From the NCBI GenBank assembly GCA_963706955.1, contig CAVPOC010000008.1:1044293-1108292 (forward strand): a stretch of 64,000 nucleotides of DNA, read 5' to 3'. Position 1 is the stretch's first letter. Each line of letters opens with the position of its first letter. This document shows positions 2,241 to 56,181 of the stretch, in pieces. The notes beneath the pieces are model-generated. The model had not been told where the DNA came from, did not search any database, and worked only from the letters and a program-made list of their open reading frames with translations. Made by a program: the position numbers and the translations under genes. This DNA is from an uncultured Verrucomicrobiae bacterium. Lineage in GTDB: Bacteria > Verrucomicrobiota > Verrucomicrobiia > Chthoniobacterales > Terrimicrobiaceae.

Positions 2241-3506
2241 TCAATCCATCTTGTTTTGCTGCCAGGATTCCTCGATCGCTTCGACGCCTGCTTCGGGAGT
2301 CATGTTTCCGGCGGCTATGTCTGCGGAGACGTCGTTAAAGACGCGTCCAGTGTCAGGTCCAAGCAACTGATCGATAGCAATCCCGATCCATTGGGACTTG
2401 CCGATCTCCTCGGCGATCGCCTTGAGGAAAGGATCCTTAATTGCTTGAGCCGTCCCTTCGACGGCGGGGATGAACACGCCTGCCTCAGCTATTTTGGTCT
2501 GGGTTTCTTTTCCGAGCCACACCCTCATGAAATCCACTGTCTCTTTAGGTGCCTGCTTGGAAACCAACCAACCGTCCAGGCTCGCGAACAGATCATTGGC
2601 TTTGCCCTTGCCATCTTTGACTTCAGGAAAGAAGAACCATCCCATCTTCTCGTTAGGAAGGCCCTTCTTGTCGGCAGCGTTTCTCCTGCCCTCGACCAAA
2701 TCCCAAGGGCCCATCAGATGAAAGGCCGCCTGGCCGTCGTGAAACACCCCCGATGCTTCCGGATAGGTGTTGGATAGATAGCCCTTCTGAAATGGCTCGA
2801 GGGCGGCGAGCTCTTTATAGAGCTGAAACGCCTTGAGTACGTTTGGATTAGCAAACCCGCCATCCTTGTCCTCATAAGCGGCCTGAAAGCCCTCCTTGCC
2901 GAGGATGCGCATCATGAGCAGGGCGGGGTAAAAATGCAGGGGCCACTTATCCTTGCCACCCGCCGCTATCGGCGTGATGCCCGCCGCCTTGAGCTTTTTG
3001 ACGGCTTCCATGAAATCCTCCCATTGTTTGATCTGCGTCGGATCGACACCAGCCTTTTGGCACAACTCTTTATTATACCAAAAAACCATTGGTGCGAGGT
3101 CGTTGGGCACCCCGTAGGCTTTACCGTCAACGACGAAATTTTGCGCGGTTGCAGGATAAAAGGTCTCGTTGAACCCTCCCTCGGCAATCTCGCTGGTGAT
3201 GTCTTTGCAGATGCCCGCGGCGACCTGTTCGTGCATCACTCCACCGCCCCAACTATGAAAGGCGCTCGGGCGGTCCTTGGACTGCAGCAGCGTCGGCAAT
3301 TTGGCCTTAAAAGCTTCATTCTCCAGATAGTTGAACTGCACGTCCACACCCGGATTGGCGGCTTCGTATTTTTTGGCAGCCTCCTCCCAAATCTCTAGGA
3401 TCTTGGGAACCGATTGCAGGTGAAGGATTTTGACGACGGTTTCCGCCCGCACGGACGAACTAAGCAATCCTAGCAGGGTACAGAGTAGTGATAGTGTGAG
3501 TTTCAT
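2241..3506 (-). CDS. Sugar ABC transporter substrate-binding protein
   Basis: Signal peptide; SBP family 1 motifs (FWYNKEL, GITPIAAGGKDKWP); lies downstream of two permeases. Confidence 0.9.
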   Translation of the reverse strand: MKLTLSLLCTLLGLLSSSVRAETVVKILHLQSVPKILEIWEEAAKKYEAANPGVDVQFNYLENEAFKAKLPTLLQSKDRPSAFHSWGGGVMHEQVAAGICKDITSEIAEGGFNETFYPATAQNFVVDGKAYGVPNDLAPMVFWYNKELCQKAGVDPTQIKQWEDFMEAVKKLKAAGITPIAAGGKDKWPLHFYPALLMMRILGKEGFQAAYEDKDGGFANPNVLKAFQLYKELAALEPFQKGYLSNTYPEASGVFHDGQAAFHLMGPWDLVEGRRNAADKKGLPNEKMGWFFFPEVKDGKGKANDLFASLDGWLVSKQAPKETVDFMRVWLGKETQTKIAEAGVFIPAVEGTAQAIKDPFLKAIAEEIGKSQWIGIAIDQLLGPDTGRVFNDVSADIAAGNMTPEAGVEAIEESWQQNKMD

Positions 3507-3738
3507 GGCGTTGTTTCTATGGTGAAAATGCGACGTCCGATCGCATGCTTGATTTGCGGTTTTAGGGGGTTCAGATTTGCCGTCTAGCTACCGGCTTTCG
3601 GCTCCGTGGGAAGATAGCCTCGACGGGAGCCCGCTGGCAAGGACGCTCGTTAGTATCGTTGTGGAGGTCACGGTTTGTCTAGCGCCGTCCGGGATCGATG
3701 CCGTTCAGGGATATGATCCAGTCGATTCATAGTCCGCT

Positions 3739-4565
3739 CTATCCCTTGACCGCGCCAGAGGTGAGGCCGGCAATAATATGTTTTTGTGCCGCCAGATAAA
3801 AGAGGATCGCCGGTGCGAGAGTCAGGCTGATGTAGGCGAGGACCTTGCCCCAGTCGGTTCCATATTGGCCCTGGTACTGCATGATGCCCAATGGCCAAGG
3901 ATAGAGCGATTCACTATTGATCATTACCAGAGGCAGCAGAAAGGCATTCCAGCTCCCAACCAAGGCCAGGACGCCGACTGTTGCCAGCACCGGTCGCGAC
4001 AAAGGCAGCGTGATCTGCCAGAAATAGCGCGTGTAACTGCAGCCATCGACCACCGCCGCCTCGAGCAGTTCTTTGGGCAATTGCGAAAAGAAGCCCGTGC
4101 AAGATCACCACCGAAAAGCCAAGGTTAAAGGCTACCTGAGGCAGAATCACCCCCCAATAGGTATCCAGCAGCCCTAAATCGCGCACTCGAATGAAGACCG
4201 GCAAGACCGCGGTCGCGAAGGGAAAGGTCAGCCCAAGCGCCAGATAATTGCCGATCAATTTTCGGCCGGCAAAATGCATGTGGGAGAGCGTGAACGCGGC
4301 CATCGAACTGACCAGCACCGTTAGCGACGGTGCTCACAAGGGCGATGATGGCCGAGTTTCCGAGCATCTGCCAAAAGCGGTGGCCCGTGAGGATCTCGAT
4401 GTAATTGTCGACGATCCATTCTCGGGGCAGTCCGAAAGCATTGGTGCGCAAGTCTCCCGTCGTTTTAAAACCGCCGATGACCGTTGCCCACAAGGGCAGG
4501 ATCACTGGGCCGGAAATCAAAAACAGTATCAGGAGCCGATAATAACGAAAAAGTCCTCTATCCAT
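3739..4565 (-). CDS. Carbohydrate ABC permease (MalG-like), split by two indels
   Basis: ORF pieces 4125-4565, 3914-4318 and 3739-4080; EAA motif ELLEAAVVDG; C-terminal IAGLTSGAVKG. Confidence 0.85.
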
Positions 4566-4567
4566 AA

Positions 4568-5531
4568 TTAGCGAGCCTCAGATTCGCGCATGAACAACCG
4601 CTTGTAGAAAATCATCACCAGCACGCAGATGACGAAGAGAATAACACCGACGGCGCTGCCGAAGCCGACCCTCATGCGCTTGATTCCAAACGTGTACAAG
4701 TAGGACACCGCCGAGTGGGTCGAATTCGACGGGCCACCATCCGTTAGCGGGATGATCATGTCGAAGAACTGCAGCGAGCCCAAAATGCTGAAGAACAGCG
4801 AAAGGACAATGACGTGCTTCATCATCGGGAGCACGACGTGCAGGGTCGATTTCCAGCGACTGGCGCCATCGATTTGCGCTGCCTCGAGGATCTCACTGGA
4901 AATGCCCTGCCGGCCGGCAACAAACAACGCCATGTGGAAACCAAAATATTTCCAAATGACGACCACCAAGAGGGCGGCCATGGCCCAGCCCTTCTCGGCG
5001 AGCACTTGCGGCGCTTCGAGACCGAACCAGCTGTAAATCACGGCAACGACACCGTAGTTGCCATCATACATGTAGCGCCAGATCAGGCCGGCCGCGACCT
5101 CGCCAAGGATGTATGGCAGAAAGAAAACCGCCCGGAAGAACACGCTCGAGCGCTGTCCGATCCGAGATCAACAGAGCGACACTCAGCGCGAGCGGCACTT
5201 GGATGAATGCCGAGACGAGGATCACCAGCAGGTTGTTGAAAAGCGCATTGTGGAAAATGGGATCGCTTAGTGCCCGAACATAGTTCTGCAGATTGATCCA
5301 TTTCGTCGGCGCCCCGTATCCGTTCCAGTTGTAAAATCCGTAATAGGCTGCTTCCACCACCGGGAAGGTCACGAATATGGTAAACAGGAGAAGTGCCGGG
5401 GGTAGAAAGAGAAGGCAGGTGGTAAGTTGGCCCGATTGTGAAAAGTCCCGCAGACGCTTGCCAATGGTTTGCTTTGCAACCGCAGGCGGCGGCGCGGTCT
5501 CCTGTGTGGAAGTAAGTTCTTTGCTAATCAC
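4568..5531 (-). CDS. Carbohydrate ABC permease (MalF-like), one indel
   Basis: ORF pieces 5064-5531 and 4568-5143; EILEAAQIDGA motif. Confidence 0.85.
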
Positions 5532-5779
5532 AGGACGTTTCAGCTAAAGGTTGTAACTTAGTCGCGCATTCCACGAGGCCGGATTCTCCTCGAGAGCCGT
5601 GCCGGAAGCGATGCTTGGCTGAGTTTGCTCGATAAGAAGGCAGGGGGCGATGGTCTCGGCATCATACGAAATGCTCCGGTGGTCGTTGTGGTCCTCGCAA
5701 GCCAACTAACCAGATCTAGTCTCATCTTGGATAGGATGTCCGGCCACGATTTGAAGATTCGTCCGACTGGTTTGTGGCA

Positions 5780-6932
5780 TTATTGTGTGGATTTCTGAAG
5801 CGGATTCCAGGTCGCCGGCAATGGCTCGGCCAGCTTGCAGGTCGTGGCGAAGGAAACTGTTTGTCCCGAGTCGGCCGATCGGATGATCGACTCCATGATG
5901 TCGAGGACGTGGAGGGCCAGATCGGCGCTGGCGCGGGGGCTGCCGCCACTGCGCACCGCGCGCGCCAAGTCCAACGCTCCCATGCCGCGACCTTCCGCGC
6001 TGCCCTCCGCCGGAAACTCTGTCCAATCGGCATCGGTTGGCGCGTCCAACCACTCTTGTGGAGAAGTCTTGTTGAGATCTTTCTTGCAGACGAACACGGA
6101 ACCATCAAAGGCGTTCGGGTCGGGCAAGCGGATGGCGCCCCCTGTGCCATGGACTTCCAGCTCGCGTGTCGCAATGGGCTCGTCAAAGCTGAATCTGGCA
6201 GTGGCGATCGGCCCGGAGGCAAACTCCAGCAGCGCCGAGATCTGCGTATCCACGGTGACTTCGAAGGTCTCTCCCGCGCGCGGCCCGCTGCCGATCGTCC
6301 GTTTATTCTGGGCTCGCCGGCCAAAGCCGGAGACCGTCTTCACGGGGCCAAAGAGCTGGACGAGCGCAGTGAGGTAGTATGGGCCCATATCCAGCAGCGG
6401 CCCTCCACCTTTTTGGAAAAGAAACTCTGGGTTTGGATGCCAGGCATCCGGGCCTGGATAGCCAAACGTGGCCTTGGCCGAGATCGGGGTGCCTATCCGG
6501 CCAGCCTCGATCACTCGGCGTGCCGTCTGCAAGCCCGCACCCAGGAAGGTGTCGGGAGCATTGCCCAAGTGGACTTTGTTCTCAGCAGCCGCCGCGATAA
6601 TCGTCTCGGCCCTCTTCGAGCGACAACGCGAACGGCTTCTCGCCATAGACATGCTTGCCTGAACGAATCGCCTGGAGCGCCACGCTGGCGTGGACCGCAG
6701 GGATGGTCAGATTTATGATCAATTCAACGTCGGGCATCTCCAAAACCGTGGCCAGATCCGCGGAGTGCGGCACCCCGTACTTCGCCGCCTGTGCCGACGC
6801 GCGACTCAAATCGATGTCCGCGCACGCAATGACGTTGACATCTGGGAAGCGGACCAGGTTCGTCAGGTATTGGTCGCTGATGTTACCGCAACCAACGACG
6901 GCAATTCCGACCGGTTCAAAAGTATTGCTCAT
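5780..6932 (-). CDS. Gfo/Idh/MocA oxidoreductase, frameshifted
   Basis: N-terminal VVGCGNIS, GKHVYGEKP, then GGGPLLDMGPYY in the next frame. Confidence 0.85.
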
Positions 6933-6963
6933 AGATGTTTTCTCGTTGGAATCGTTTGACCGA

Positions 6964-7868
6964 TTATCGATTGGCGGTAAATGCATCCGGGCCGAACTGC
7001 TTGGCAATCCAGGCTGCGGAAATTTTCGTGGATTCGAGGTTTGTCGGGGCCTCGGGCACGTCGACTTCGACAACGATCCAGCCGTTAAACGATGAGGGAA
7101 GCGCGCCCAACGCCGGCGGCCAGGTCGATATCGCCCCGACCCGGCTCTGTCCAGACGGTAAACTTTCCTCGGGTGGCCTCGTGGTAGCTGGCGCCGGCAG
7201 CTTTTGACTGCCTTCACTTGATCGGCATGAACATCCTTGAGATGCATTCCTGCGATTCGCGTGGAATAACGACTCATGATCTTGACTGGGTCCACTCCGG
7301 CCCAGGTGAGATGGCCGGTATCCGGACCGAATCCGAGGATCGAGTCTGGGACGCCCTGCAGAACCGTATCGATTTCGTTTTCCACTTCGATCGCGCTTCC
7401 GACGTGAGGGTGCAGCATGGGCCGCACTCCTTCAGCGACAATGGCGGCTAGCCGCGGCGCCGACGCCATCGACGACTTTCGCCAAGATCGGCCGCGTCAG
7501 CATCCGCACCGATCGCCGGATGTTCTACACGGACTCCGTCCACATTGGCGGCAAGGAAGACCTCTGTGTTGCCGAGCTCCGCCTGAACAGCCGCATGCCG
7601 TTTCGCGCTCTCGGCGATCTTGATCCAGCGGAGTGTCATGGAACGACGCTGCAAAGTAACCGGGTGCCGGAACAAACCCATAATCGGCAAGAAGAGCACG
7701 GTACTCGGACGGCGTCAACTCGGCCGGCGGGTCGGCCTGGATCGCTTTGAACGGAGTGGTGGCGATTTCTGAAAAGGCTTGGCGAAGGACCGGAACAGAA
7801 AGGTCAAATCCTCTTTCAGTGAGCACCCACGGGAGCGGGTTCAAGGCGATTTTGGCGTGGCTGGTCAT
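6964..7868 (-). CDS. Sugar phosphate isomerase/epimerase (IolE-like TIM barrel), several indels
   Basis: HPHVGSAIE, GPDTGHL and MHLKDV metal-binding motifs found across frames. Confidence 0.75.
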
Positions 7869-8081
7869 AGGTGGTTGTCCCGGCAGACTAGCCGGACAAC
7901 CCCTCCTCAGATAGAATTTCTCAATGGCCTTTAGAACATTCGTCCGACTTTCCGACAGTCGAAGCACTTTCCGGCGATGCAGACGCGCCAGCCGGCCGGC
8001 TGCAACCGATCGCCTCCGCGGTTGACATCATGAACCGCAGAAAGCCGCAGGCTCTCGGCGTACCCGAATCAGGTCGTCAGT

Positions 8082-8956
8082 TCAACTGTGCTTTGCTGAG
8101 AGCGAAACGCTGCCGGCGGTTGTGCCGAAGAAGCGTCGAAAGTGGCGATTGAGGTGCGCCTGGTCACAGAAGCCCGTGGTGGCTGCGATCTCGGCCAATG
8201 AAAGGGAAGGATTGCGCTGGCCGATGAGTTTGCGCGCGTGGTTTAGGCGGACGAGGAGCAAATATTGATGCGGGGTATGGCCGGTGAGTTGACGGAACAT
8301 GAGCGCAAAATGACTGCGACTCATCTTCGCCAGCGAAGCCAGCTCGTTCAAAGAGAGGTCTTCGGCAAAATCTTTCTCCAGACGCTCAACTGCTCGCCTG
8401 ATGTCCAGGCGGAACAGCCGTCTTTCGTTCCCCTTTTTTACAGTCCCAAGCACGCGCAAAGCTAGGGCACGGGCAAGCGGCTCGAAATAGAGCGGACCAT
8501 GTGGGCATTGATCCTCGGTCTCTTCCATGAGAAGCCGGCATAAGGCTTCCGTCCGCTGGTCGATGGCAAAGAAATGATGCCAATGCGACTTCGGAGATAA
8601 CCTCGAAGAGCCCCATCTCTTTGGCCATCGCCTCGAAAAAAGCAGGCGAGAAGCTGAAGTTAACAACAAAGCCCGCGGCACCCTCCCACTCGCCAAAAAC
8701 CGGCACGCCTGGAGGCGAAACAAAGATATTTCCCCGGTGAATGTGGTGATGGTGCAAACCAAGCTCCGGAACCGTAATCCACGTGTCTCCCTTCTCTGTT
8801 CTTGGCCTGTACCAGAAGGTGTAAGTGTTCTGAGCGGGAGTTACGGCAGAGGAAACGTTGGCGGGAAGCCTGTGGATGGCGACTTTGAGCGCATCGACCC
8901 CGGAGCGATCGCTCCGCAGAACAACCAGAGTCATTAACATTTAAAGCTCCGGCCAT
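8082..8956 (-). CDS. AraC family regulator, copy 1 (indels)
   Basis: AraC HTH (MSRSHFALMFR...GFCDQAHLNRHFRR); closely paralogous to 9033-10007. Confidence 0.85.
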
Positions 8957-42850: not shown

Positions 42851-43738
42851 ATGAAAGACGCTCTCGATCTTTTGAAACAGGCTGCTTGGGATTGGTTCGA
42901 CGATAGCGCTCCGACCCTGGGCGCCGCCGTCGCGTACTACACCGTCTTCTCACTTGCCCCCCTCTTTGTCATCGCCGTATTCATCGCCGGCCTGGTCTTC
43001 GGCCAGGAGGCGGCGCAGGGTCAGATCTTTGTTCAATTGCGTGCGTTGATCGGCGAGACCAGTGCCGCCGCCATGGAAGACGTGGTGGAAAGCGCCAATT
43101 CACAGCCGAAGACCGGCGTGTTTGCCACGATTGTCGGATTTGTTGTTTTGATTGTCGGCGCCTCGGGAGTTTTTGCGCAGATGCAGGCTTCACTCAATGC
43201 CATCTGGCGCGTGGAACCCAAGCCCGGACGCGGTATCTGGGGGCTTCTTCAAGATCGAATCCTCTCTTTTGGCTTTATACTCGTCGTCGGATTTCTCCTT
43301 CTGATCTCCCTGATTCTGACCGCGATCATCGCGTTTATCGGAACATGGTTTGGCGGCTTCCTGCCTGGCGTCGAGACGCTCATCCAGATCCTGAACGCCA
43401 TCCTCTCCTTGGCGATCATCACCTTGCTCTTCGCCATGATTTTCAAGTTTCTGCCCGATGTGAAGATCGCCTGGCGCGATGTCTGGATCGGTGCCCTGAT
43501 CACGGCCGGGCTCTTTACCGCAGGCAAAGAAATTCTCGGGCTCTATCTGGGAAAGAGTGGCGTGGCTTCGTCCTACGGTGCGGCCGGATCCCTGATCGTC
43601 CTGCTCTTATGGGTCTACTACTCGGCGCAGATTGTCTTTTTCGGAGCCGAGTTCACGAAGGCTTATGCAAATAAATTCGGCTCGCGTGTCGTCCCGGCAG
43701 AAAATGCAGTCGCCGTGGCGAAAAGACGGTTGACCTGA
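42851..43738 (+). CDS. YihY/BrkB family membrane protein
   Basis: GAAVAYYTVFSLAP and YGAAGSLIVLLLWVYYS. Confidence 0.9.
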   Translation: MKDALDLLKQAAWDWFDDSAPTLGAAVAYYTVFSLAPLFVIAVFIAGLVFGQEAAQGQIFVQLRALIGETSAAAMEDVVESANSQPKTGVFATIVGFVVLIVGASGVFAQMQASLNAIWRVEPKPGRGIWGLLQDRILSFGFILVVGFLLLISLILTAIIAFIGTWFGGFLPGVETLIQILNAILSLAIITLLFAMIFKFLPDVKIAWRDVWIGALITAGLFTAGKEILGLYLGKSGVASSYGAAGSLIVLLLWVYYSAQIVFFGAEFTKAYANKFGSRVVPAENAVAVAKRRLT

Positions 43739-43788
43739 ATCCACGAGCGTCCTGCCTAAGAAAAAACAGAGCAGCACGCGGCTGCGTT

Positions 43789-44253
43789 CTACGGCTTCAA
43801 GTCAACCGCGGCTCTGTTGCTGCCGTCCATATAAAAGGGCACTGATTCATGCTCGTGAATGATTAGCCATCTTCCTTCGATCTTGCATAGGCCAACTGTT
43901 TCCCGCAGCCAGATATCTGTTCTCTCGCCGCTAACCTTTTGGCCGCTTATTCGGTTAAGGCTGTGACAGAAGGCCACATCGTCGCCAACCCTTATCGTCA
44001 GATCGCGGATCTCGAGGCTGATCGGTCCTCGAAAGGTCTTAAACCACTCTTCCAGATTCTGCTTCAGATCACTCTGTGCTTGCAATGGAGGCGCTAGAAA
44101 AAATCCCACACTTTCCGGCGACGTATGCGATAAAACTGCGTCGGCATCCTTGGCGCAAATCGCGCCTGCCCAAGCCTCAATTACCCGGCGGATTTCGGAT
44201 TCGTTCGTTGCTTCGTTCATAAGCGATTTCAGGTTTTTACGGATCTCGGACAC
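43789..44253 (-). CDS. SnoaL/NTF2-like protein
   Basis: WLRETVG...WLIIHEHESVPF. Confidence 0.8.
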   Translation of the reverse strand: MSEIRKNLKSLMNEATNESEIRRVIEAWAGAICAKDADAVLSHTSPESVGFFLAPPLQAQSDLKQNLEEWFKTFRGPISLEIRDLTIRVGDDVAFCHSLNRISGQKVSGERTDIWLRETVGLCKIEGRWLIIHEHESVPFYMDGSNRAAVDLKP

Positions 44254-44273
44254 GTCGGAAGAGGCTGTAGTTC

Positions 44274-44949
44274 TTAATACTCATCATGACGACGCCACCA
44301 CTCGTAGGGTGGTGTCTGCGGCCATCCGGCTGGTGAATCCTCCCACTGCTCTTGTCGGCCGAGCGGTGTCAGGTCGAGCAGAGCGAAGCTACTGACCAAG
44401 TGCTCAACACCGCGAGCAGTCGTGAAGTAGGTCTGGAAAATAGCATCGCCGTTTCGCAGGAACACGCTGAGTCCAAAGGTTTCGCCTTCTGGAGTTGTGA
44501 GTCCGAAATCGTCATTGAAATCCGTGCCGGCGGAGGAAAACCATGGGATCGCTCCATCCCATCCGCCGTCTGTACGCCTCGAGATTTGCGAGCGGCGCGC
44601 GCGAGACCAGCACAAGGGAAGTGTTGCGAGTGTGCAGGTGCGCAACCGGACCAAGGTGGTCGACCACCATGGAGCAGCCTGGACAACCCGCCGAAGGCCA
44701 GCCGTCAACATCTGGCGCAAACATGAAATGGTAAATAATGAGCTGGCGACGTCCGGCAAAGAGATCAAGCAGACTTGCTTTGACCCTCGGGTCCCTCAAA
44801 GATGTAGTTCTTCTCGATCGGGAACATCGGCAGGCGGCGACGTTCGGCCGTGAGACATCGCGCGCCCGCGTAGCCGCCTTCTCCTTGACCAACAATTGGT
44901 CTCGAGCTCGCTGCCACTCCTCCCGCGAGATGATCGGCGGATGGCTCAT
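44274..44949 (-). CDS. DUF899 thioredoxin-like protein, frameshifted
   Basis: LLVKEK, LIIYHFMF, GCPGCS and LLDLTPLGRQE. Confidence 0.85.
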
Positions 44950-45317
44950 CAGTGATTCGTTTTAGAGTTCTCTTTCGACGACATGGGATCCTTCACGGTT
45001 GTCTTTGTTTTTCTTCTTAGATACTTCGAGGCGGCAAGGGCTGTCCATCCGGTGGTGGTGGCAGCAGCAGCAGTTGCAGCGCGATGGTAGCAAGGCAAAA
45101 CGGACACATGGCTCAAGCTGCTCCTTTCCAACATGTGCAGTTTCGCCGGGTCTACCATCGCCATGAATGACGAGTTCGGAAGCTGTCATGATATGGTCAT
45201 GAAAAAATCGCAAGCCTTCATAGAAGTTTGTGAATTTCAATACTTCGACGAACGAACCGATCGAAAAAGGACGCCTCCAGAAAGTCACGCCGAGACCATG
45301 ACCATCGATCCTGGGGT

Positions 45318-46307
45318 TCAGGGATGCTCGGGCCAATTGATGTTATCCAGCAGCTGGGCCAGCCGCACACCGGCTTTAGTCAACTGTCGCGCAGCATAAA
45401 CGCGGTTAGCGTCCAAATAATTGACGGGCAATTCAATGTCGATCCGCAGGAGATTCTTGTCTGCATCGACCTCTGTTTTCTGAAAGACGATCCCTAGATA
45501 GGCCAGAGCGGCAATGCGCACCGATTCGATCACCCACACTTCTGGCCAGCCGTACAGGTCTCCCGGCGTTTTCGTGGTCTCTTCGGTGCTGATGTTCTTT
45601 GATAGGAGATCTGCCAGCGCTGTCGCCTCGGCAGTATCGTGAATCGCTTTAACAAGCAGGACGTCCCAGAAAGCGTGCAGTTGTTCGGAAGGAGTGGTTC
45701 CATAAAAGAGAAGATTTCCGCCGCGGTCGTTCGGTTTCCCGAATGCCTGTGCCGGAAAGGTAATGAGCTCGGCCCTGCCCGGTCTATCGAGAGTGTAATA
45801 ACCGGTCCCACAGTGCAGGGGCTGGTGCACGTCACCGACCAAATGGACGAGAAGCCGGAGTGCCTGCACCTTGGTAAGCTCCTGCGAATTTGAAACCGGC
45901 GCTTCAAGAACCTGAATACAACGGGAAATCGCCTTGGCGATGCTGTCTTGTGGTGTGAACGCGCGGGCCTCCTCGGCAGATAAAGTGCCGAGCGGAAGAT
46001 TGACAAAATGCCATGTCCGATTGTTGGGGAACTTTCGATTAAACTCCTGGGCTTCGGAGTCTTCATTCAGCGGTCCCTTACCACGTGCAGCTGAGACGAG
46101 ATCGTCGGCCCAAGAAGCGACCGAGACGAGGCTCTCGTCGCCGCCTTCCGCCAACAAGTGTTTCACGTTCGCGCGAGTGTCAGGAGAGATGAGACGCTCG
46201 GCGATCAACGCGATGACTGCGTGACCTTCGGGTGCCCAGGAAAACGCCTTTGCGGGCCAGAGGGCCAAAGACGCCAAGCCGATCAAAACTGGAAGGAGAC
46301 TCTTCAT
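45318..46307 (-). CDS. S1/P1 nuclease family protein with signal peptide
   Basis: Mature N-terminus WAPEGH, WAD, WHFVN, HLVGDVHQPLH, DRGGN, LHAFWD and AGVRLA. Confidence 0.92.
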   Translation of the reverse strand: MKSLLPVLIGLASLALWPAKAFSWAPEGHAVIALIAERLISPDTRANVKHLLAEGGDESLVSVASWADDLVSAARGKGPLNEDSEAQEFNRKFPNNRTWHFVNLPLGTLSAEEARAFTPQDSIAKAISRCIQVLEAPVSNSQELTKVQALRLLVHLVGDVHQPLHCGTGYYTLDRPGRAELITFPAQAFGKPNDRGGNLLFYGTTPSEQLHAFWDVLLVKAIHDTAEATALADLLSKNISTEETTKTPGDLYGWPEVWVIESVRIAALAYLGIVFQKTEVDADKNLLRIDIELPVNYLDANRVYAARQLTKAGVRLAQLLDNINWPEHP

Positions 46308-46355
46308 GCGCCATCCTACCGAGTATGCGGCAAGGTGGCTAGCGATGCGACAGCA

Positions 46356-47342
46356 TCACCTTAACACAGAGAACCTGAAGTAATTCTTCTCTATCTTATC
46401 GGGAACGAGGATGCGAAGCGTCCTTTCGAAATTCGCGATCTCCCTGCTTTCGATCAGCTTGAAATTGTTTTCCCTTTCCAGGAACTCATCCGTGAAAATC
46501 CTCTTAATTGCCAGATACGACGCGAACATCGTCGTTGGAATATCGAATAACTTGAACTCCTTCCCGTTCACAAAGTCTCCCTCGATGTAAAACGGAAACG
46601 GTCTGATCTTGGTTTCGACGACAATCTGCTTCAGGCCGGCCGCCCGCCTCTTGAAGCTGTCCTGGTCAAGTTCCACGAGGTTCTGCGGAATTTGCACCTC
46701 GATGGTTCGGTACCTGTTGATGATATCGCACTCGGTTTCTGAGATCTTTTTGCCAGCCGCGTCCTTCTCTATGATCTTTATCTTGTCGGAGTGTTCGAAG
46801 GCTTCAAATACCCGCCGCAAGAAGTTATTGTAGTAGCCTATCGCGAGCGAGGTGGAAGGAAGGAGAGTGAAATGCTGGAGTCTTTCGGCTACCTCCATTT
46901 CTTCTCGTATTCGACTGCAGGCGTTCCCGACAGCCGCAACCAGGTTGTCTCTTTTTCTGAACTTCGCAACCTCGATGCCACTCCAATCAGAGAAGAGCTC
47001 GACACCTTCCTCCAATACCAGAAAGGTGCGGTTCGGTCCGAGCCGGCCGAGAAATAGTCCAAACTCAAAGATGACATTGTCGCGAGTAACTTTGACCTGC
47101 TTCTCTCTGATAATCGCCTCGTCATCACCCGTGAAGACAGCAATTACAAAATCATAGAAACTGGCGCGGTTAAGCAGCGTATCGAGGTAGTTCCTGTTAG
47201 CTTTGAAAATGTTTTCGCTCCAAATATCCACATCGGCTTCGCTGTCGAAGTGGCTTTTTACGGCCCGAGCCAACGGCAGAGCTTCTTTGGAAGAAGCTAT
47301 GAAAATATTCGCGCGCCTTTTGGTTGCAGTATAGTTCGGCAT
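46356..47342 (-). CDS. TIR-STING fusion (Cap12-like cyclic dinucleotide receptor/NADase)
   Basis: TIR: IFIASSKE, RDNVIFEFGLFLG; prokaryotic STING: LPSTSLAIGYYNNF, RPFPFY, DIPTT, REIANFERTL. Confidence 0.9.
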   Translation of the reverse strand: MPNYTATKRRANIFIASSKEALPLARAVKSHFDSEADVDIWSENIFKANRNYLDTLLNRASFYDFVIAVFTGDDEAIIREKQVKVTRDNVIFEFGLFLGRLGPNRTFLVLEEGVELFSDWSGIEVAKFRKRDNLVAAVGNACSRIREEMEVAERLQHFTLLPSTSLAIGYYNNFLRRVFEAFEHSDKIKIIEKDAAGKKISETECDIINRYRTIEVQIPQNLVELDQDSFKRRAAGLKQIVVETKIRPFPFYIEGDFVNGKEFKLFDIPTTMFASYLAIKRIFTDEFLERENNFKLIESREIANFERTLRILVPDKIEKNYFRFSVLR

Positions 47343-47440
47343 GAAGTGTCAGTAAGAAACTAGACCTAATGCTCTCTAATAAAAGCACTCCGGGCCGCGG
47401 CCTGCTCGCCCGTGAGATCCCGAAATCGTGAAATATTTTT

Positions 47441-48328
47441 TTGCCACATCCGAATGCGGGAGTCAAGCCGCGGGAAACCGCACGGAGCTCCGCTCATTCT
47501 CGAGTCGAGTGCGCTTTGGCATTGACGAGCCGCCCTGGTGTAAACGATTTGGTCCCGGTGGACCTAGCCACCGCAGAAAGGACGCCAAAACAGAATCAGT
47601 TAGTCGTGATTGAAAAGGTCAACAAGTTCTATGGCGACCTCCATGTGCTTAACGACATCACGACAACCATCACCCGCGGCGAAGTCGTCATCGTCATCGG
47701 CCCATCCGGCTCTGGAAAATCGACGCTCTGTCGGGCGATCAATCGGCTCGAGACAATCGACTCCGGAACCATCCTCATCGACGGCAAGCCGCTCCCTGAG
47801 GAAGGCAAAGAACTCGCCAGACTGCGCGCCGATGTTGGGATGGTCTTTCAATCATTTAATCTCTTTGCGCACAAAACCGTCCTCGAAAATGTGACGCTCG
47901 GACCGATCAAAGTCCGAAGCGTAAAACCAAACGACGCTCGCGCAAGGGCCATGCTCCTGCTCGAGCGCGTCGGCGTTGCCAACCAGGCACAAAAGTATCC
48001 TCACCAGCTTTCCGGCGGACAGCAGCAGCGCGTGGCCATCGCGCGCTCCTTGGCCATGGACCCAAAGCTGATTTTGTTGGATGAACCGACTAGCGCCCTC
48101 GACCCTGAAATGATTTCCGAAGTGCTCGATGTCATCGTGAACCTTGCAAGCGGTGGCATGACAATGCTGGTCGTAACTCATGAAATGGGTTTTGCCAGTA
48201 ACGTGGGCAGCCGGGTGGTTTTCATGGCAGACGGAGAAATCCTTGAAGAAGCTCCGCCGGCGGAGTTTTTTAGGAATCCTCAAACTGCGCGAGCGGCCGA
48301 TTTCCTGTCGAAAATACTCGCGCACTAA
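47441..48328 (+). CDS. Amino acid (glutamate) ABC ATPase, GluA-like; true start probably further downstream
   Basis: GPSGSGKST, LSGGQQQR and DEPTSALD. Confidence 0.9.
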   Translation: MPHPNAGVKPRETARSSAHSRVECALALTSRPGVNDLVPVDLATAERTPKQNQLVVIEKVNKFYGDLHVLNDITTTITRGEVVIVIGPSGSGKSTLCRAINRLETIDSGTILIDGKPLPEEGKELARLRADVGMVFQSFNLFAHKTVLENVTLGPIKVRSVKPNDARARAMLLLERVGVANQAQKYPHQLSGGQQQRVAIARSLAMDPKLILLDEPTSALDPEMISEVLDVIVNLASGGMTMLVVTHEMGFASNVGSRVVFMADGEILEEAPPAEFFRNPQTARAADFLSKILAH

Positions 48329-48355
48329 AAGGTTGAAAGGAAGAGTAGTCTCCGC

Positions 48356-49255
48356 ATGAGACAGGCAAGGTTCACACTAGCAGTCTTCGTGGTGGCGGTC
48401 GCCGGCGCGCTGACTCTGAATTCATGTGGCGACTCCAGCAAAACGTCGAGCACCGGCAATGCCGAAGCGAATGGTCCTTATCAGCTTGCCGTGAAGATTG
48501 ATCCAAAATTCGAAGCCGGCAGCACCATGGAGAAACTCTCCAAGGCAAAAAAGATCACCATTGGCACCAAGTTCGATCAACCCTTGTTTGGTCTGAAAGG
48601 GCCGGACGGCAAGCCCCGAGGCTTTGACGTCGCAATCGGCTCGCTGGTCGCCTCACGCCTGGGAATTCCTTACGAAAATATTGAGTGGGTGGAGACGGTC
48701 TCGCTCAACCGCGAACCCTTCTTGCAACAGGGGCGGGTAGATATCGTCGTGGCAACTTACACCATCAACGATGAACGCAAGAAGGTCGTCGACTTTGCCG
48801 GGCCTTATTACGAGGCGGGTCAATCGATCATGGTTCTTAAATCGAACACCGACGTGAAAGGCCCCGAAGACCTTCGCGGCAAGCCGGTCTGCTCGGTCGA
48901 GGGTTCCACTCCCGCGGCACGCATCGTGAAAGATTACGGCGCCAATCTCGTCGCGACCGACGCCTACTCGAAATGCCTCGAGCCACTACGCAATGGTCAG
49001 GTCATTGCAGTTACCACTGACAATGTCATCCTGGCTGGTTTTGTTGACCAGAATCCCGAGTTCAAACTCGTCGGCGAACCTTTCACGAAAGAGCCATATG
49101 GCATAGGTGTGAAGAAGAACGACGACAAATTGCGCGCGTTTATCAATGATGTTCTCGAAGATGCCGAGAAGGACGGAACCTGGAAACGGCTTTGGCAGGA
49201 AACGGCCGGCAAGGTTCTGCCGACTCCCAGTCCACCGGTGCTCGCGCGATACTAA
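48356..49255 (+). CDS. Glutamate ABC substrate-binding lipoprotein, GluB-like
   Basis: Lipobox LNSC; GTKFDQPLFG, ATYTINDERK and EPYGIG. Confidence 0.88.
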   Translation: MRQARFTLAVFVVAVAGALTLNSCGDSSKTSSTGNAEANGPYQLAVKIDPKFEAGSTMEKLSKAKKITIGTKFDQPLFGLKGPDGKPRGFDVAIGSLVASRLGIPYENIEWVETVSLNREPFLQQGRVDIVVATYTINDERKKVVDFAGPYYEAGQSIMVLKSNTDVKGPEDLRGKPVCSVEGSTPAARIVKDYGANLVATDAYSKCLEPLRNGQVIAVTTDNVILAGFVDQNPEFKLVGEPFTKEPYGIGVKKNDDKLRAFINDVLEDAEKDGTWKRLWQETAGKVLPTPSPPVLARY

Positions 49256-49308
49256 GATCTCCGCCGAACGTTCTTCATCGCGGATACAAGATTGCCAAGG
49301 ACGAGTCG

Positions 49309-49957
49309 TTGAAAGTCATCCTTGAGAACTTTGGTCTGTTTTGGCTCGGTTTCATCTCCACCCTGAAGTTACTCGGTGTCTCTGGGATCGGTGCGCTCCT
49401 CCTGGGCACGTTGATGGCTTCGTTGCGTGTATCCCCCTTCGGTTCTTTTCGAGCCCTCTCCGCCATCTATACCGAGCTTCTTCGCAACACTCCTTTGACC
49501 CTGGTGTTTTTTTTCTGCGTGTTCGTTCTGCCGAAACTCGGCATCGTCCTCGACTTTCAAATATCCGCGATAGTTGCCTTGACCGCCTACACAGCTCCCT
49601 TCGTCGCAGAAGCACTCCGGTCGGGGATTAACGGTGTGCCGATCGGTCAGGCCGAGGCGGCTCGCAGTCTTGGTCTAAGATTCGACCAGAGTACTAACGC
49701 TAGTCGTTCTTCCACAAGCTGTGCGCATGGTTATTCCTCCTTTGATCAATGTGTTCATCGCGCTAACCAAGAACACCTCGGTCGCCGGAGGCTTCTTTGT
49801 CTTTGAGCTCTTCAGCGTTGGAAAACGCCTGGCCAACTTACATGGTTCGGCTGTCGTTCCGATTCTGGTCGGTATTGCGTGCTTCTACCTTCTTATTACC
49901 GTTCCCCTCGGTCAGTTGTCTCAGCGGCTGGAAGCCAGAATTGCGCTCGTCCGATGA
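49309..49957 (+). CDS. Amino acid ABC permease, GluC-like (indel near 49690)
   Basis: RNTPL, EALRSGI, GQAEAARSLG and LTKNTS. Confidence 0.85.
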
Positions 49958-50787
49958 GTTCCTCAGTTCTTTACGATGCCCCAGGTCCAAAGACGCGCCG
50001 GGTATCAAACATTGTCTCGATTGTTGGTTTGCTCGCGATTGGCAGTGCCCTCGCGTGGCTGCTAGCGACGCTCGCCGCGCCCCGCGAGATTCGACCGGGT
50101 TTGGTCCAACCCGGCCTGTTTGACTCCTCGCGCTGGAATATCTTCTACGAGCCTTTCCAAGGCTACAGCCCCTTTCAGGTTTGGTACGGAATCTTCACCG
50201 GACTGGCGGCTACCTTTAGTGCTGCAGTTGTCGCGGCGTTGCTCGCCATGTCGCTCGCCCTTGTGGTCTGCCTTTTGCGCCTGACGAAGAACGCAGGCGT
50301 GCGAGTGCCCACGGCGGTGATGCTGGAGTTCCTTCGCGGGATGCCGATTCTGCTAATGATGCTGTTCATCCTACTCGTCTCTGGGATCTCCGTTTTTTGG
50401 GTGGTTGTGGCATCATTGGCTCTATACAATGGTGCCGTTATCGGTGAAGCGATTCGCTCGGGAATCCAATCTCTGCCGCGAGGACAGCGCGAGGCAGGTC
50501 TCGCTTTGGGGCTTAGCAGTATCCAGGTCCGATTAATCATCGAGTTGCCGCAGGCCTTGCGCCAGATGATGCCAACAATTGTCGCTCAGTTGGTGGTTTT
50601 GCTAAAAGACACGTCCCTCGCTTACATCATCGGATATGAGGATCTTCTTAAGAAGATTACCCATCTCTCGAACTTCTACGGTGACCGTTATTTCTTTTCC
50701 GTGTTCTTTGTCGCCCTCGTCGCCTACCTGCTGGTGAACCTGAGCATCTCGCGTTTCGCCTGGCACCTATCCAAACACGTGCACTAA
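49954..50787 (+). CDS. Amino acid ABC permease, GluD-like
   Basis: MSSSVLYDAPGP, GQREAG and LLKDTSL. Confidence 0.88.
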   Translation: MSSSVLYDAPGPKTRRVSNIVSIVGLLAIGSALAWLLATLAAPREIRPGLVQPGLFDSSRWNIFYEPFQGYSPFQVWYGIFTGLAATFSAAVVAALLAMSLALVVCLLRLTKNAGVRVPTAVMLEFLRGMPILLMMLFILLVSGISVFWVVVASLALYNGAVIGEAIRSGIQSLPRGQREAGLALGLSSIQVRLIIELPQALRQMMPTIVAQLVVLLKDTSLAYIIGYEDLLKKITHLSNFYGDRYFFSVFFVALVAYLLVNLSISRFAWHLSKHVH

Positions 50788-51175: not shown

Positions 51176-51439
51176 GGGGGAGCGCAGACCGGATATCAGT
51201 TCCGGGTGATCTTGAACTAATGACCGTGAAGCCCCCGTCCATCCGAGGGCTCGCGCGACGTACGAATTCGATCTATTGTAATCGAGCGGTGGCAATCCGC
51301 GATCTCCGCCCGGGGACACGAACTGAACCGGCGGCCAAGGCCGTGTGATCTCTACAGCGAAACAGGAACAGATCTCACCGAGGAGCTGACTCATGGCTAA
51401 GACTGGGCATGACTCCGCGACGGACCCGAAGGCCCTCCT

Positions 51440-51600
51440 TGGCCAAACTCGCGGCGCAAAACATGGCGGTAAAAGAAGAGCAGGGCGTTGAATGCCTGAT
51501 TGTGCGTTGCGCCTGCGACGTTCTGGCGCACGGCAAGATCTGTCAGAAATCCTTTGACATCTTCCGTGTTGAGATGATCCGGGGGCTTGCCCCGTAGCTT
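51440..51600 (-). pseudogene. Integron-integrase-like N-terminal (SAM-like) fragment
   Basis: DVKGFLTDLAVRQNVAGATHNQAFNALLFFYRHVL. Confidence 0.7.
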
Positions 51601-51604
51601 CGCT

Positions 51605-51817
51605 CTTGCCCGCCGATTTTGTCGACGCAAAGCGATGGCCCATAAATTCGCGAAAGTAGCCCGCGATTCCCTTCTCGCTGGTGAGGTTGGGCACGAAGGC
51701 GTTCAGATATATGCGGTCGATACATTCCAGTTCCAAAACGACATTTTCGCGTTGGAGTTCGGCGACCGAGGGAGCGATGCTCAGAGTTGCCGTCCGGTTG
51801 GGTTCTTGTCCGCCCAT
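51605..51817 (-). pseudogene. N-terminal fragment of a putative transposase-like gene
   Basis: VLELECIDRIYLNAFVPNL motif; truncated. Confidence 0.45.
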
Positions 51818-54915: not shown

Positions 54916-55030
54916 GGCAACAGAGATCCACTAATGTTCGCAGACGTCCATTTTACAAGGGTTTGTCCACATTGGACATTGACGGACATTCTCGGACACT
55001 CTAACTGAGACTCTAACCACACATTTGCAA

Positions 55031-56181
55031 ATGTCCTGCGTTTGGAAACCGCCGAAGAGCCGATTCTGGATCGCGCAGTTTACCGATCACACTGGTACAC
55101 GACGCAATCGGAGCACGAAGACAACCGACCGTCGGAAGGCAGAGAAGCTAGCCGAGCATTACGAAGAGGCATACGCGAGAAAGCGCACCGCCCGGCAGAT
55201 CCGAGAAGTGATCTCCAGCGCCCACAAAGAAATTACCGGTGAGCAACTGGTCAACAAATCGTTTCGCTCTTTTTCGAAGTCATGGCTTGCGGCAAAGCGG
55301 AATGAAGTAGCGGAGGCGACATTAAAGTTCTACTCGAAGGCAGTGGATAAATTCCTCGCTCACCTTGGCACGCTAGCCGATGCGGACTTGAGCGAAATTA
55401 CCCGTGAACACATTTTGGACTTTCGCAATCGCGAGGCGGAGACGTTCGCACCGAAAACGGTAAACCACGATCTGAAAGCGGTGAAAATGCTCTTCCGATC
55501 CGCAAAGCGGGACGGATTGATTGCTGATAATCCGGCCGAGGATGTCAAAACTGTCAGCCAACGGGGAGAGAAGCGGACTGGCGTCCTTTCTCCATGGATG
55601 AGCTTCGCGCCGTTCTCTCCGTAGCAGATGAGGAATGGAAGAGCATGATTCTTTTCGGCCTCTACAGCGGGGCGCGCCTTTTTGATGTGGCAACGCTGAC
55701 GTGGCAAAATGTGGACCTTCCCGCCAAGGAATTGCGCTTCATCGCCAGAAAAACGGGCAAGACGATCATCGTTCCCCTGGACGGGCCGCTGGCCGCGCAC
55801 GTCGAAGCGCTGCCTGCCGCCGATTCCGTTAACGCCCCGCTGCATCCCCGTGCCTTTGGCATTGTGGAAAGGCAGCGAAAAACGGGCCATCTTTCAAATC
55901 AGTTTGCGGATTTGCTCGCGCAGGCCGGACTAAAGGAGAAGCAGCCACACCGCAAAACGCTTCGCAGGGAACACGGGCGATGCCGCGCGCAGGCCGACAT
56001 CTCGTTCCACAGTTTGCGGCATACCGCCGTCACCTTACTGAAGGAAGCCGGAATCCCCCAGGCGGTCGTCATGGAGCTTGTTGGCCACAACAACCAGGAA
56101 ATGAGCCAGCATTATACTCGCGTAGGCCGTATGGCCCTGGAAGGTGCGGCAAGAGCATTTCATGACCTTCTGGCTCGTTAA
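55031..56181 (+). CDS. Tyrosine recombinase/integrase (indel near 55585)
   Basis: YSGARLFD, SFHSLRHT, LVGH and HYTR; paralogous to 12628-13750. Confidence 0.92.

Follow-up and report, generated by a model that had tools for sequence, protein, structure and literature searches.

A 64,000-nucleotide stretch of DNA from an uncultured Verrucomicrobiae soil bacterium (contig CAVPOC010000008.1, positions 1,044,293 to 1,108,292; hereafter the window) carries a gene for a TIR-STING protein, the Cap12 type of effector of antiphage systems that signal through cyclic oligonucleotides (CBASS), and just downstream a gene for an S1/P1-family nuclease. The TIR-STING gene is intact and under strong purifying selection, and no cyclase that would supply its signal was detected. 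The reading that we favor, at about an even chance, is that of an orphan but functional CBASS effector standing beside an unrelated exported nuclease with a scavenging role, the two being neighbors by coincidence and inheritance. A first-pass annotation of the window had centered on the two genes as a candidate system and overlooked the main oddity, which is that no cyclase is found in the genome; this orphan state is more interesting than the pairing with the nuclease. In the literature, as far as its accessible text goes, bacterial STING appears as an effector paired with a cyclase; in the present case two genomes carry an intact and strongly conserved TIR-STING with no detectable synthase of its likely ligand, the only cyclic-dinucleotide synthase found being one for c-di-AMP in the window genome (G000). 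Such cyclase-less effectors, if functional, must respond to a signal of other origin, and c-di-GMP would become a non-self cue.

The TIR-STING protein matches the CAP12/Pycsar TIR family (Pfam PF10137, 4e-28, residues 12-129) and the prok_STING family (PF20300, 2.6e-24, residues 162-310), as well as the PADLOC model for the CBASS 'Effector TIR' (PDLC00729, 1.4e-85, residues 10-317). Its closest solved structures in the PDB are Cap12 chains (9lmq, 2.1e-46; 8hwi, 1.6e-44; 7un8, 8.4e-36), and the isolated STING domain of 8hwi aligns to residues 157-326 (1.6e-44). The reading frame is full length, and all residues that are invariant among the 30 closest homologs are present; E93, F94, and G95 are invariant across these homologs and also kept in 9lmq, and E93, the glutamate of the FEFG motif, is presumably the catalytic residue of the TIR domain. 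With the TIR-STING (Cap12) effectors of type I CBASS, such as that encoded with CdnE in Sphingobacterium faecium (PDB 7un8), the window protein shares the layout of a CAP12-type TIR and a prokaryotic STING domain, the FEFG glutamate, the STING-domain invariants, and the PADLOC CBASS effector model. Another type I CBASS of CdnE and TIR-STING is described in the accessible part of a report on Epilithonimonas lactis (mBio 2025, PMC12421889). Unlike these systems, the window TIR-STING has no nucleotidyltransferase of the cGAS/DncV-like kind (CD-NTase) adjoining it or elsewhere in the assembly.

The window genome (4.16 Mb, 15 contigs, 92.5% complete) returned no SMODS (PF18144) or DncV-like_NTFase (PF21654) domain, no match to the PADLOC cyclases PDLC00807 and PDLC00784, no GGDEF domain, and no type III CRISPR RAMP gene. 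The PDLC00807 search works, since it recovered the cyclase in three of five other STING genomes, and GGDEF was found in 8 of the 14 genomes of a control set. Translated searches of G000 (tblastn) with six cyclases and two GGDEF partners from related loci gave nothing. Local hidden Markov models (HMMs) for cyclases gave a single match there (C8:325698-326342; 18.5 bits, E 0.002), which was identified as OmpH/Skp and not a cyclase. One DAC-domain gene, for the c-di-AMP synthase, is present. A sister genome that retains the pair (G001, an uncultured Verrucomicrobiae metagenome-assembled genome, MAG) has no PDLC00807, PF21654, GGDEF, or cyclase of the type found at the related locus L054. GGDEF is absent from all five STING-bearing genomes examined, in agreement with what the original bacterial STING paper reportedly found.

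At the locus itself no CD-NTase adjoins the TIR-STING gene, whose neighbors are a divergent ABC ATPase gene and the S1/P1 nuclease gene. At typical TIR-STING loci a CD-NTase abuts the effector (PADLOC confirmed seven of seven upstream open reading frames, ORFs, of CdnE-like length), and at the 55 loci with a detected CD-NTase-type cyclase the two genes are at most 4 kb apart and usually overlap or abut. No cyclase leftover is seen upstream of the window TIR-STING, and the 98 bp there leave no room for a cyclase gene. Upstream of the G001 TIR-STING there is a frame of 319 aa that belongs to no Pfam or PADLOC family and does not resemble the L054 cyclase; it is taken as a spurious GC-rich frame. 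The missing cyclase gives the idea of an exogenous signal, put forward in the first-pass annotation, its only footing.

In a tree of 30 TIR-STING proteins, the window protein falls within a 22-member clade (support 100/100). Unlike type I CBASS with its CdnE, this clade has SMODS/DncV-like, CdnE, or GGDEF partners, and about half of the readable members have none (Table 1). At L054, L055, L063, and L068, the SMODS/DncV-like cyclase lies upstream of TIR-STING. As read from the sequences, cyclase loss is repeated within the clade. Members of one subclade (support 98/97) have TIR-STING followed by a gene for a GAF-GGDEF diguanylate cyclase (L061:872-1924, L065:1472-2572, and L067:1427-2455; GGDEF identity is Pfam-confirmed for L061 and L065 only). 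This arrangement looks like a CBASS-like pair with GGDEF in place of the CD-NTase; no paper describing a pair of TIR-STING and diguanylate cyclase was found among the accessible papers. Because the GGDEF partners occur within the same TIR-STING clade, they argue for c-di-GMP as its probable ligand.

The neighbors at the cyclase-less loci of this clade (L003, L056, L083, L182, and L186, and also L070 and L073) are mixed and include an AraC regulator, an MBL-fold protein, a divergent EEP-family nuclease, and an esterase; G004, to which L003 belongs, showed neither the searched cyclases nor GGDEF. A small ORF (143-158 aa) with no Pfam family lies between the SMODS-type cyclase and TIR-STING at L054:5443-5919 and L060:5541-5972, and ORFs of equal position and length were called between the two genes at L055 and L063.

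On the favored reading, the window TIR-STING would descend from a clade wired to a CD-NTase of SMODS/DncV-like or CdnE type or to a GGDEF diguanylate cyclase, and the cyclase would have been lost in both G000 and G001. By analogy with its solved relatives, the protein would be expected to bind a cyclic dinucleotide of the 3'3' kind, with c-di-GMP the likeliest, and in the ligand-bound state would polymerize and destroy NAD+. As c-di-GMP is not made by the host, a trigger would need an origin beyond the core genome, in an invading element or an unassembled cyclase. The S1/P1 enzyme, as a Sec-exported zinc-dependent nuclease/3'-nucleotidase, would resemble its nearest relatives in digesting nucleic acid outside the cell or in the periplasm so that it can be taken up. 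The adjacency would have arisen once, in the common ancestor of G000 and G001, and would have been kept as a small synteny block without mechanistic coupling.

The nuclease matches the S1-P1_nuclease family (PF02265, 1.5e-42, residues 24-323) over profile positions 1-256 of 258, has PDB matches to 8qjl (2.5e-14) and also to 4cxo, 1ak0, and 5fb9, and is the sole S1/P1 gene found in G000. Several particulars given in the first-pass annotation are borne out. The ORF coordinates place the nuclease 48 bp downstream of TIR-STING on the same strand (gap 46308-46355). Its zinc-binding motifs are intact: all nine positions that we take to be the zinc ligands of nuclease P1 are present, and over 39 S1/P1 sequences W24 is kept in 36, H29 in 38, and D68, H100, H155, D159, H165, H211, and D215 in all 39. 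The hydrophobic N-terminus (MKSLLPVLIGLASLALWPAKAFS, followed by W24) is predicted to be a signal peptide that ends just before the mature tryptophan; in eight of eight PDB matches the mature chain has its residue 1 aligned with W24, and the A-F-S ahead of it agrees with the rule of small residues at positions -3 and -1 of a cleavage site. The TIR-adjacent copies at L002 (the G001 locus; ..QTAFA, then W) and at the metagenome locus L065 (..SEAAS, then W) share this layout. The cutting of 3'-5' cyclic-dinucleotide bonds by nuclease P1 is likewise backed by the accessible part of PMC9980059, where the enzyme is applied to cyclic dinucleotides as a 3'-5'-specific reagent.

The mature N-terminal tryptophan and the nine zinc-ligand positions are common to the S1/P1 family (bacterial 8qjl, nuclease P1 1ak0, nuclease S1 5fb9, and plant ENDO2 4cxo). 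Fungal, plant, and bacterial S1/P1 enzymes are secreted, and the window nuclease is likened to them in this. Compared with the solved enzymes it has about 60 residues more; the extra residues fall in gaps of the PDB chains near residues 75-98 and 168-195 and are also present in relatives belonging to family f7. Neither the window nuclease nor that of L002 matched a PADLOC family. With only 26-32% identity, the window nuclease is, judging by sequence, not an ortholog of the S1/P1 genes of its own taxonomic family. A single-protein scan of genome contigs yielded one partial relative, and the other relatives were reached by genome searches; after the L002 copy, the nearest are 47-50% identical (family f7, six loci). 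Sugar-type ABC components occur at four of these six loci and ribose-5-phosphate isomerase (RpiA) at two, along with GH3 enzymes. No TIR or STING gene is present at the six f7 loci, and no TIR gene was detected at the S1/P1 loci L133-L162, L166-L170, and L174-L180. The gene setting of the nuclease relatives appears to be that of a nutrient-scavenging exoenzyme. In a single case (L180, G180:C61, 1902-4961, family f7), a close relative of the nuclease is convergent with a response-regulator-PAS-GGDEF-EAL gene.

The pairing was followed across TIR-STING loci found by querying either with the TIR-STING protein or with its 30 closest homologs in alignment: genome contigs gave 51 loci with the single protein and 37 with the alignment, metagenome contigs 121 (80 kept), viral contigs 1, and three STING genomes of the order 3. 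Exclusion of 13 duplicate loci and of partial and TIR-only matches left 106 distinct full-length TIR-STING loci, 79 of which have at least 1.1 kb downstream and are evaluable. A family-wide S1/P1 HMM placed a nuclease within 4 kb of TIR-STING at three loci, L053, L002, and L065. L053 is 95.7% identical to the window over the whole 3.5 kb, flanks included, and is the same taxon. This leaves S1/P1 near TIR-STING at 2 of the 78 other evaluable loci (L002 and L065). Of 201 genomes sampled in the order, 4 have STING, and the three besides G000 show no adjacency: the genes are 115 kb apart in G130 and on different contigs in G193, and no S1/P1 was found in G063. L055, the only one of the four close cyclase-bearing relatives with readable downstream sequence (2.5 kb), has no nuclease there, and none is found in the 4.1 kb downstream at L056, which is cyclase-less and 77% identical. 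Within the order S1/P1 genes are common, occurring in 94 of the 201 sampled genomes and 41 of 72 genera (92 of 199 genomes without the unpublished G163 and G178), with 109 genes in the 201 genomes.

A few of the collected loci stand apart from this count. One candidate (L072:1-1351, a metagenome contig of 1,351 bp) was set aside; its similarity to the window, at 93% identity, covers 412 bp in the TIR half, its frame breaks at about residue 148, and like L056 it carries an MBL-fold gene upstream. This contig is probably chimeric or holds a disrupted, recently moved copy. The sole relative from the viral collection (L218:4893-6957, on a 45.6-kb IMG/VR contig) pairs a CdnE-type cyclase with a TIR-STING 51% identical to that of the window and has no nuclease. 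At L011, L014, and L015, TIR-STING lies among type III CRISPR genes (RAMP and Csm4) with no CD-NTase detected, and at L014 and L015 a gene with a cytidine-deaminase domain lies just downstream of it.

The locus in the sister genome, L002, shows how the two genes have fared together. G001 has about 74% DNA identity to the window in conserved genes, and eight flanking orthologs are 70-85% identical at the protein level; TIR-STING is 86% and the nuclease 62% identical to the window copies, with a gap of 39 bp whose sequence is not conserved with the 48-bp window spacer. Synonymous sites of the two genes are saturated alike (proportion of synonymous differences, pS, 0.72 and 0.70), and nonsynonymous divergence (dN) is 0.079 for TIR-STING versus 0.256 for the nuclease. 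Because synonymous change is equal and saturated and dN is low, both genes are old companions under purifying selection, which is very strong for TIR-STING. The first-pass annotation had named confinement of the pair to a single genome, with separate transcripts and a nuclease that does not cleave cyclic dinucleotides, as the outcome that would refute it; the pair is not so confined, being kept in G001, and that outcome therefore applies only by half. The conservation in G001 is the best evidence for linkage of the two genes, but a block of two genes counts for little by itself, because blocks of 2-7 functionally unrelated genes also persist between G000 and G001. The left and right flanks of the window map to G001 contigs C25 and C19 (the ABC transporter orthologs lie on C19, away from the pair), and the downstream flank of the G001 pair maps to G000 contig C3. 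In neither genome do the flanks of the other's pair adjoin, as they lie on different contigs; no clean insertion site could be demonstrated, and the comparison shows only the separation of the pair from its flanks.

Several observations weigh against a coincidental adjacency. The pair has persisted while both flanks changed: the DNA match shared with L002 covers the two genes only (window 45436-47321), and the L002 flanks are wholly different. The genes lie only 48 and 39 bp apart on a shared strand, and no terminator-like site lies between them. An orphan effector held by strong purifying selection (dN 0.079) needs a source of ligand, which the favored reading does not fix. A non-orthologous S1/P1 gene lies 0.8 kb from the L065 TIR-STING, and S1/P1 genes lie within 7 kb of TIR_2 in 3 of the 150 places listed out of 318, where about 0.4 such pairs would be expected by a rough estimate of ours. 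Such points would be met by a true two-gene module, in which a cyclase-less TIR-STING senses a foreign 3'3' cyclic dinucleotide, non-self to a host free of c-di-GMP, and the exported S1/P1 enzyme is its partner, a reading that we regard as possible but doubtful. The nuclease could then be an insulator that hydrolyzes environmental 3'-5' cyclic dinucleotides in the periplasm, or a 'post-mortem' effector that enters the cell when the envelope fails after NAD+ loss and shreds phage and host nucleic acid; S1/P1-type nucleases in plant programmed cell death offer a parallel for the latter. A module would suit the conduct of the pair as a unit in both genomes, the purifying selection and equal synonymous divergence of its genes, their close spacing on one strand, and the absence of every searched cyclase type from both hosts; the independent S1/P1 neighbor in L065 and those near other TIR genes, the GGDEF partners that point to c-di-GMP, and the action of nuclease P1 on 3'-5' cyclic-dinucleotide bonds (PMC9980059, accessible part) speak for it as well. 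Yet S1/P1 is present at only 2 of 78 other loci, and the one extra hit, against about 0.09 expected by chance within 4 kb over 77 loci (our estimate from the density in the order), is suggestive, not decisive; the L065 nuclease, moreover, is in convergent orientation with TIR-STING and immediately follows another gene, of TIR_2 type. The cyclase-less clade members L003/L070, L056, L083, L182, and L186 have no S1/P1, no way for cyclic dinucleotides to be taken up is apparent, and the nearest nuclease relatives are in nutrient-uptake settings. All three TIR-adjacent nucleases have predicted signal peptides, which would put them in another compartment than TIR-STING and supports separate functions. 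The two-gene system of the first-pass annotation keeps in its favor the retention of the pair in G001, and is weakened by the scarcity of the pairing, by cyclase-bearing relatives that lack the nuclease, and by the frequency of S1/P1 genes in general; support for the two genes working together is thin, and the pairing is a lead and not a system.

The cyclase might instead lie outside the assembly (7.5% of markers are missing) or be of an unrecognized type, so that the locus would be an ordinary CBASS, TIR-STING would be no orphan, and the nuclease would be irrelevant. The assembly is incomplete and in 15 contigs, the window reaches a contig end (C8:1044293-1108292 of 1,108,292), and TIR-STING is clearly maintained as functional. 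We nevertheless consider this explanation unlikely: at the 55 loci where a CD-NTase-type cyclase was detected it lay within 4 kb, both sides of the window TIR-STING are assembled for many kilobases with none present, G001 has none, and neither do five more clade members readable for 4-6 kb on both sides. It is highly improbable that TIR-STING is a decaying remnant, a dead leftover of a lost CBASS operon with no present function. The absent cyclase, a DUF899 pseudogene, and integrase fragments nearby are what one would cite for decay, but every residue invariant in the 30 closest homologs is kept in a full-length frame, the protein is more alike between G000 and G001 than are the eight flanking orthologs (86% versus 70-85%), and its dN of 0.079 contrasts with saturated synonymous change. 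RNA contigs on TIR-STING in three of four runs also speak against decay, if weakly, as DNA carry-over is possible. An orphan but functional effector beside an unrelated nuclease is the reading that we prefer to these.

A bolder proposal is that TIR-STING serves by itself as an alarm against foreign dinucleotides of the c-di-GMP type in bacteria that do not produce them, with the exported S1/P1 enzyme as its dedicated partner; this strikes us as improbable. If it were true, the nuclease would clear away 3'-5' dinucleotides of environmental origin and so leave the alarm to be triggered by an intracellular invader alone, or would finish off the nucleic acids of the dying cell and the phage, and the pair would be a bacterial counterpart of the TIR and S1/P1-nuclease theme of plant cell death, the scattered TIR-adjacent S1/P1 genes included. 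The nuclease pairing would matter only if a lineage-corrected census confirms it. The suggestion in the first-pass annotation that the nuclease is an exported signal eraser is disfavored: because the nuclease is predicted to be exported and TIR-STING to be cytoplasmic, the enzyme could not erase an intracellular signal, and its relatives lie amid sugar-ABC and RpiA genes. Phage Acb1 is reportedly an eraser of cyclic-nucleotide immune signals. Known erasers are phage-encoded and act inside the infected cell, whereas the window nuclease is host-encoded and predicted to be exported, and its cyclic-dinucleotide activity is putative. The logic would be the same, in that hydrolysis of the 3'-5' bond removes the STING ligand, as nuclease P1 does in vitro (PMC9980059, accessible part).

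Sequence archives show that the stretch recurs, with at least half of its sampled words present in each of 14 DNA runs from eight studies. Four metatranscriptome runs from four studies contain short contigs on TIR-STING (three runs) and on the nuclease (two runs). None of the RNA contigs in these four runs bridges the 48-bp gap, and one ends 9 bp past the TIR-STING stop codon; as DNA carry-over is possible, they are evidence neither for nor against co-transcription. A promoter and terminator scan found no promoter-like or terminator-like site on the coding strand of the gap, and Rfam gave no match in 43500-48500. The statement that no system with this pairing has been described holds for PADLOC and for the searchable literature, in which no paper was found that joins S1-P1 nucleases with CBASS or TIR-STING, or that deals with orphan or cyclase-less CBASS effectors.

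Table 1. Features of the window locus (window coordinates), partner genes in the TIR-STING clade, and TIR_2 loci with S1/P1 genes
Feature	Position or loci	Strand	Basis or remark
TIR-STING (Cap12-type CBASS effector)	46356..47342	minus	intact 328-aa ORF; Pfam, PADLOC, and PDB matches
TIR (NADase) domain, aa 12-129	46956..47309	minus	Pfam PF10137; FEFG glutamate E93 invariant
Predicted prokaryotic STING cyclic-dinucleotide-binding domain, aa 162-310	46413..46859	minus	Pfam PF20300; PDB 8hwi match
48-bp spacer, TIR-STING to nuclease	46308..46355	minus	AGGA 6 nt ahead of nuclease ATG
S1/P1-family nuclease precursor, 329 aa	45318..46307	minus	Pfam PF02265; PDB matches
Predicted Sec signal peptide, aa 1-23	46239..46307	minus	mature enzyme from W24
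Divergent intergenic region, TIR-STING to ABC ATPase gene, 98 bp	47343..47440	no strand	no cyclase remnant
Polar amino-acid ABC transporter: ATPase, SBP_bac_3, two permeases	47441..50787	plus	Pfam; context only
DUF899 gene over two overlapping frames	44274..44949	minus	PF05988 positions 1-134 and 112-224; context only
SMODS/DncV-like cyclase partner	L054/L055/L063/L068, L060, L064, L184		first four 79-86% identical to window protein
CdnE-type cyclase partner	L004
GGDEF gene directly downstream	L061, L065, L067		supported subclade
No detectable partner	L003, L056, L083, L182, L186		4-6 kb readable both sides
TIR_2/S1-P1 loci	L221 (G162:C22) 3695-7194; L222 (G192:C33) 3458-8914

The S1/P1 gene of L065, a metagenome contig, belongs to a different subfamily from the window nuclease (27% identical; the two TIR-STING proteins are 60% identical). 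It is convergent to TIR-STING and its GGDEF partner and lies 90 bp behind a separate gene for a 699-aa TIR_2-TM-TPR-like protein (L065:2393-5587). Relatives of this TIR_2 protein, of TIR_2-TPR type, are found in two Alphaproteobacteria MAGs (L219/L220:4983-9362) near an S1/P1 gene of another subfamily; the latter is 1.2 kb away, with a molybdopterin oxidoreductase gene between, and the TIR_2-TPR gene is convergent with that pair. In G162 and G192, both from one Verrucomicrobia genus, TIR_2 is followed by a Ub-Mut7C/Mut7-C RNase gene and then by S1/P1, and the third TIR_2/S1-P1 pair within 7 kb is in G074. S1/P1 and TIR genes may be mildly prone to cluster in general.

The pair is flanked by the divergent polar amino-acid ABC transporter upstream of TIR-STING and a frameshifted DUF899 gene downstream of the nuclease. 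The DUF899 gene is likely a frameshift pseudogene, judged by its two frames; an intact DUF899 paralog is present on the same contig (C8:529980-530690). Toward the contig end, at a distance of 4-8 kb from the pair, there are integrase-like fragments at 51397-51630 (minus strand) and 55025-55624 (plus strand); the latter ORF matches phage-integrase SAM-like N-terminal domains in Pfam, and the former was judged by eye. These fragments hint at a variable region.

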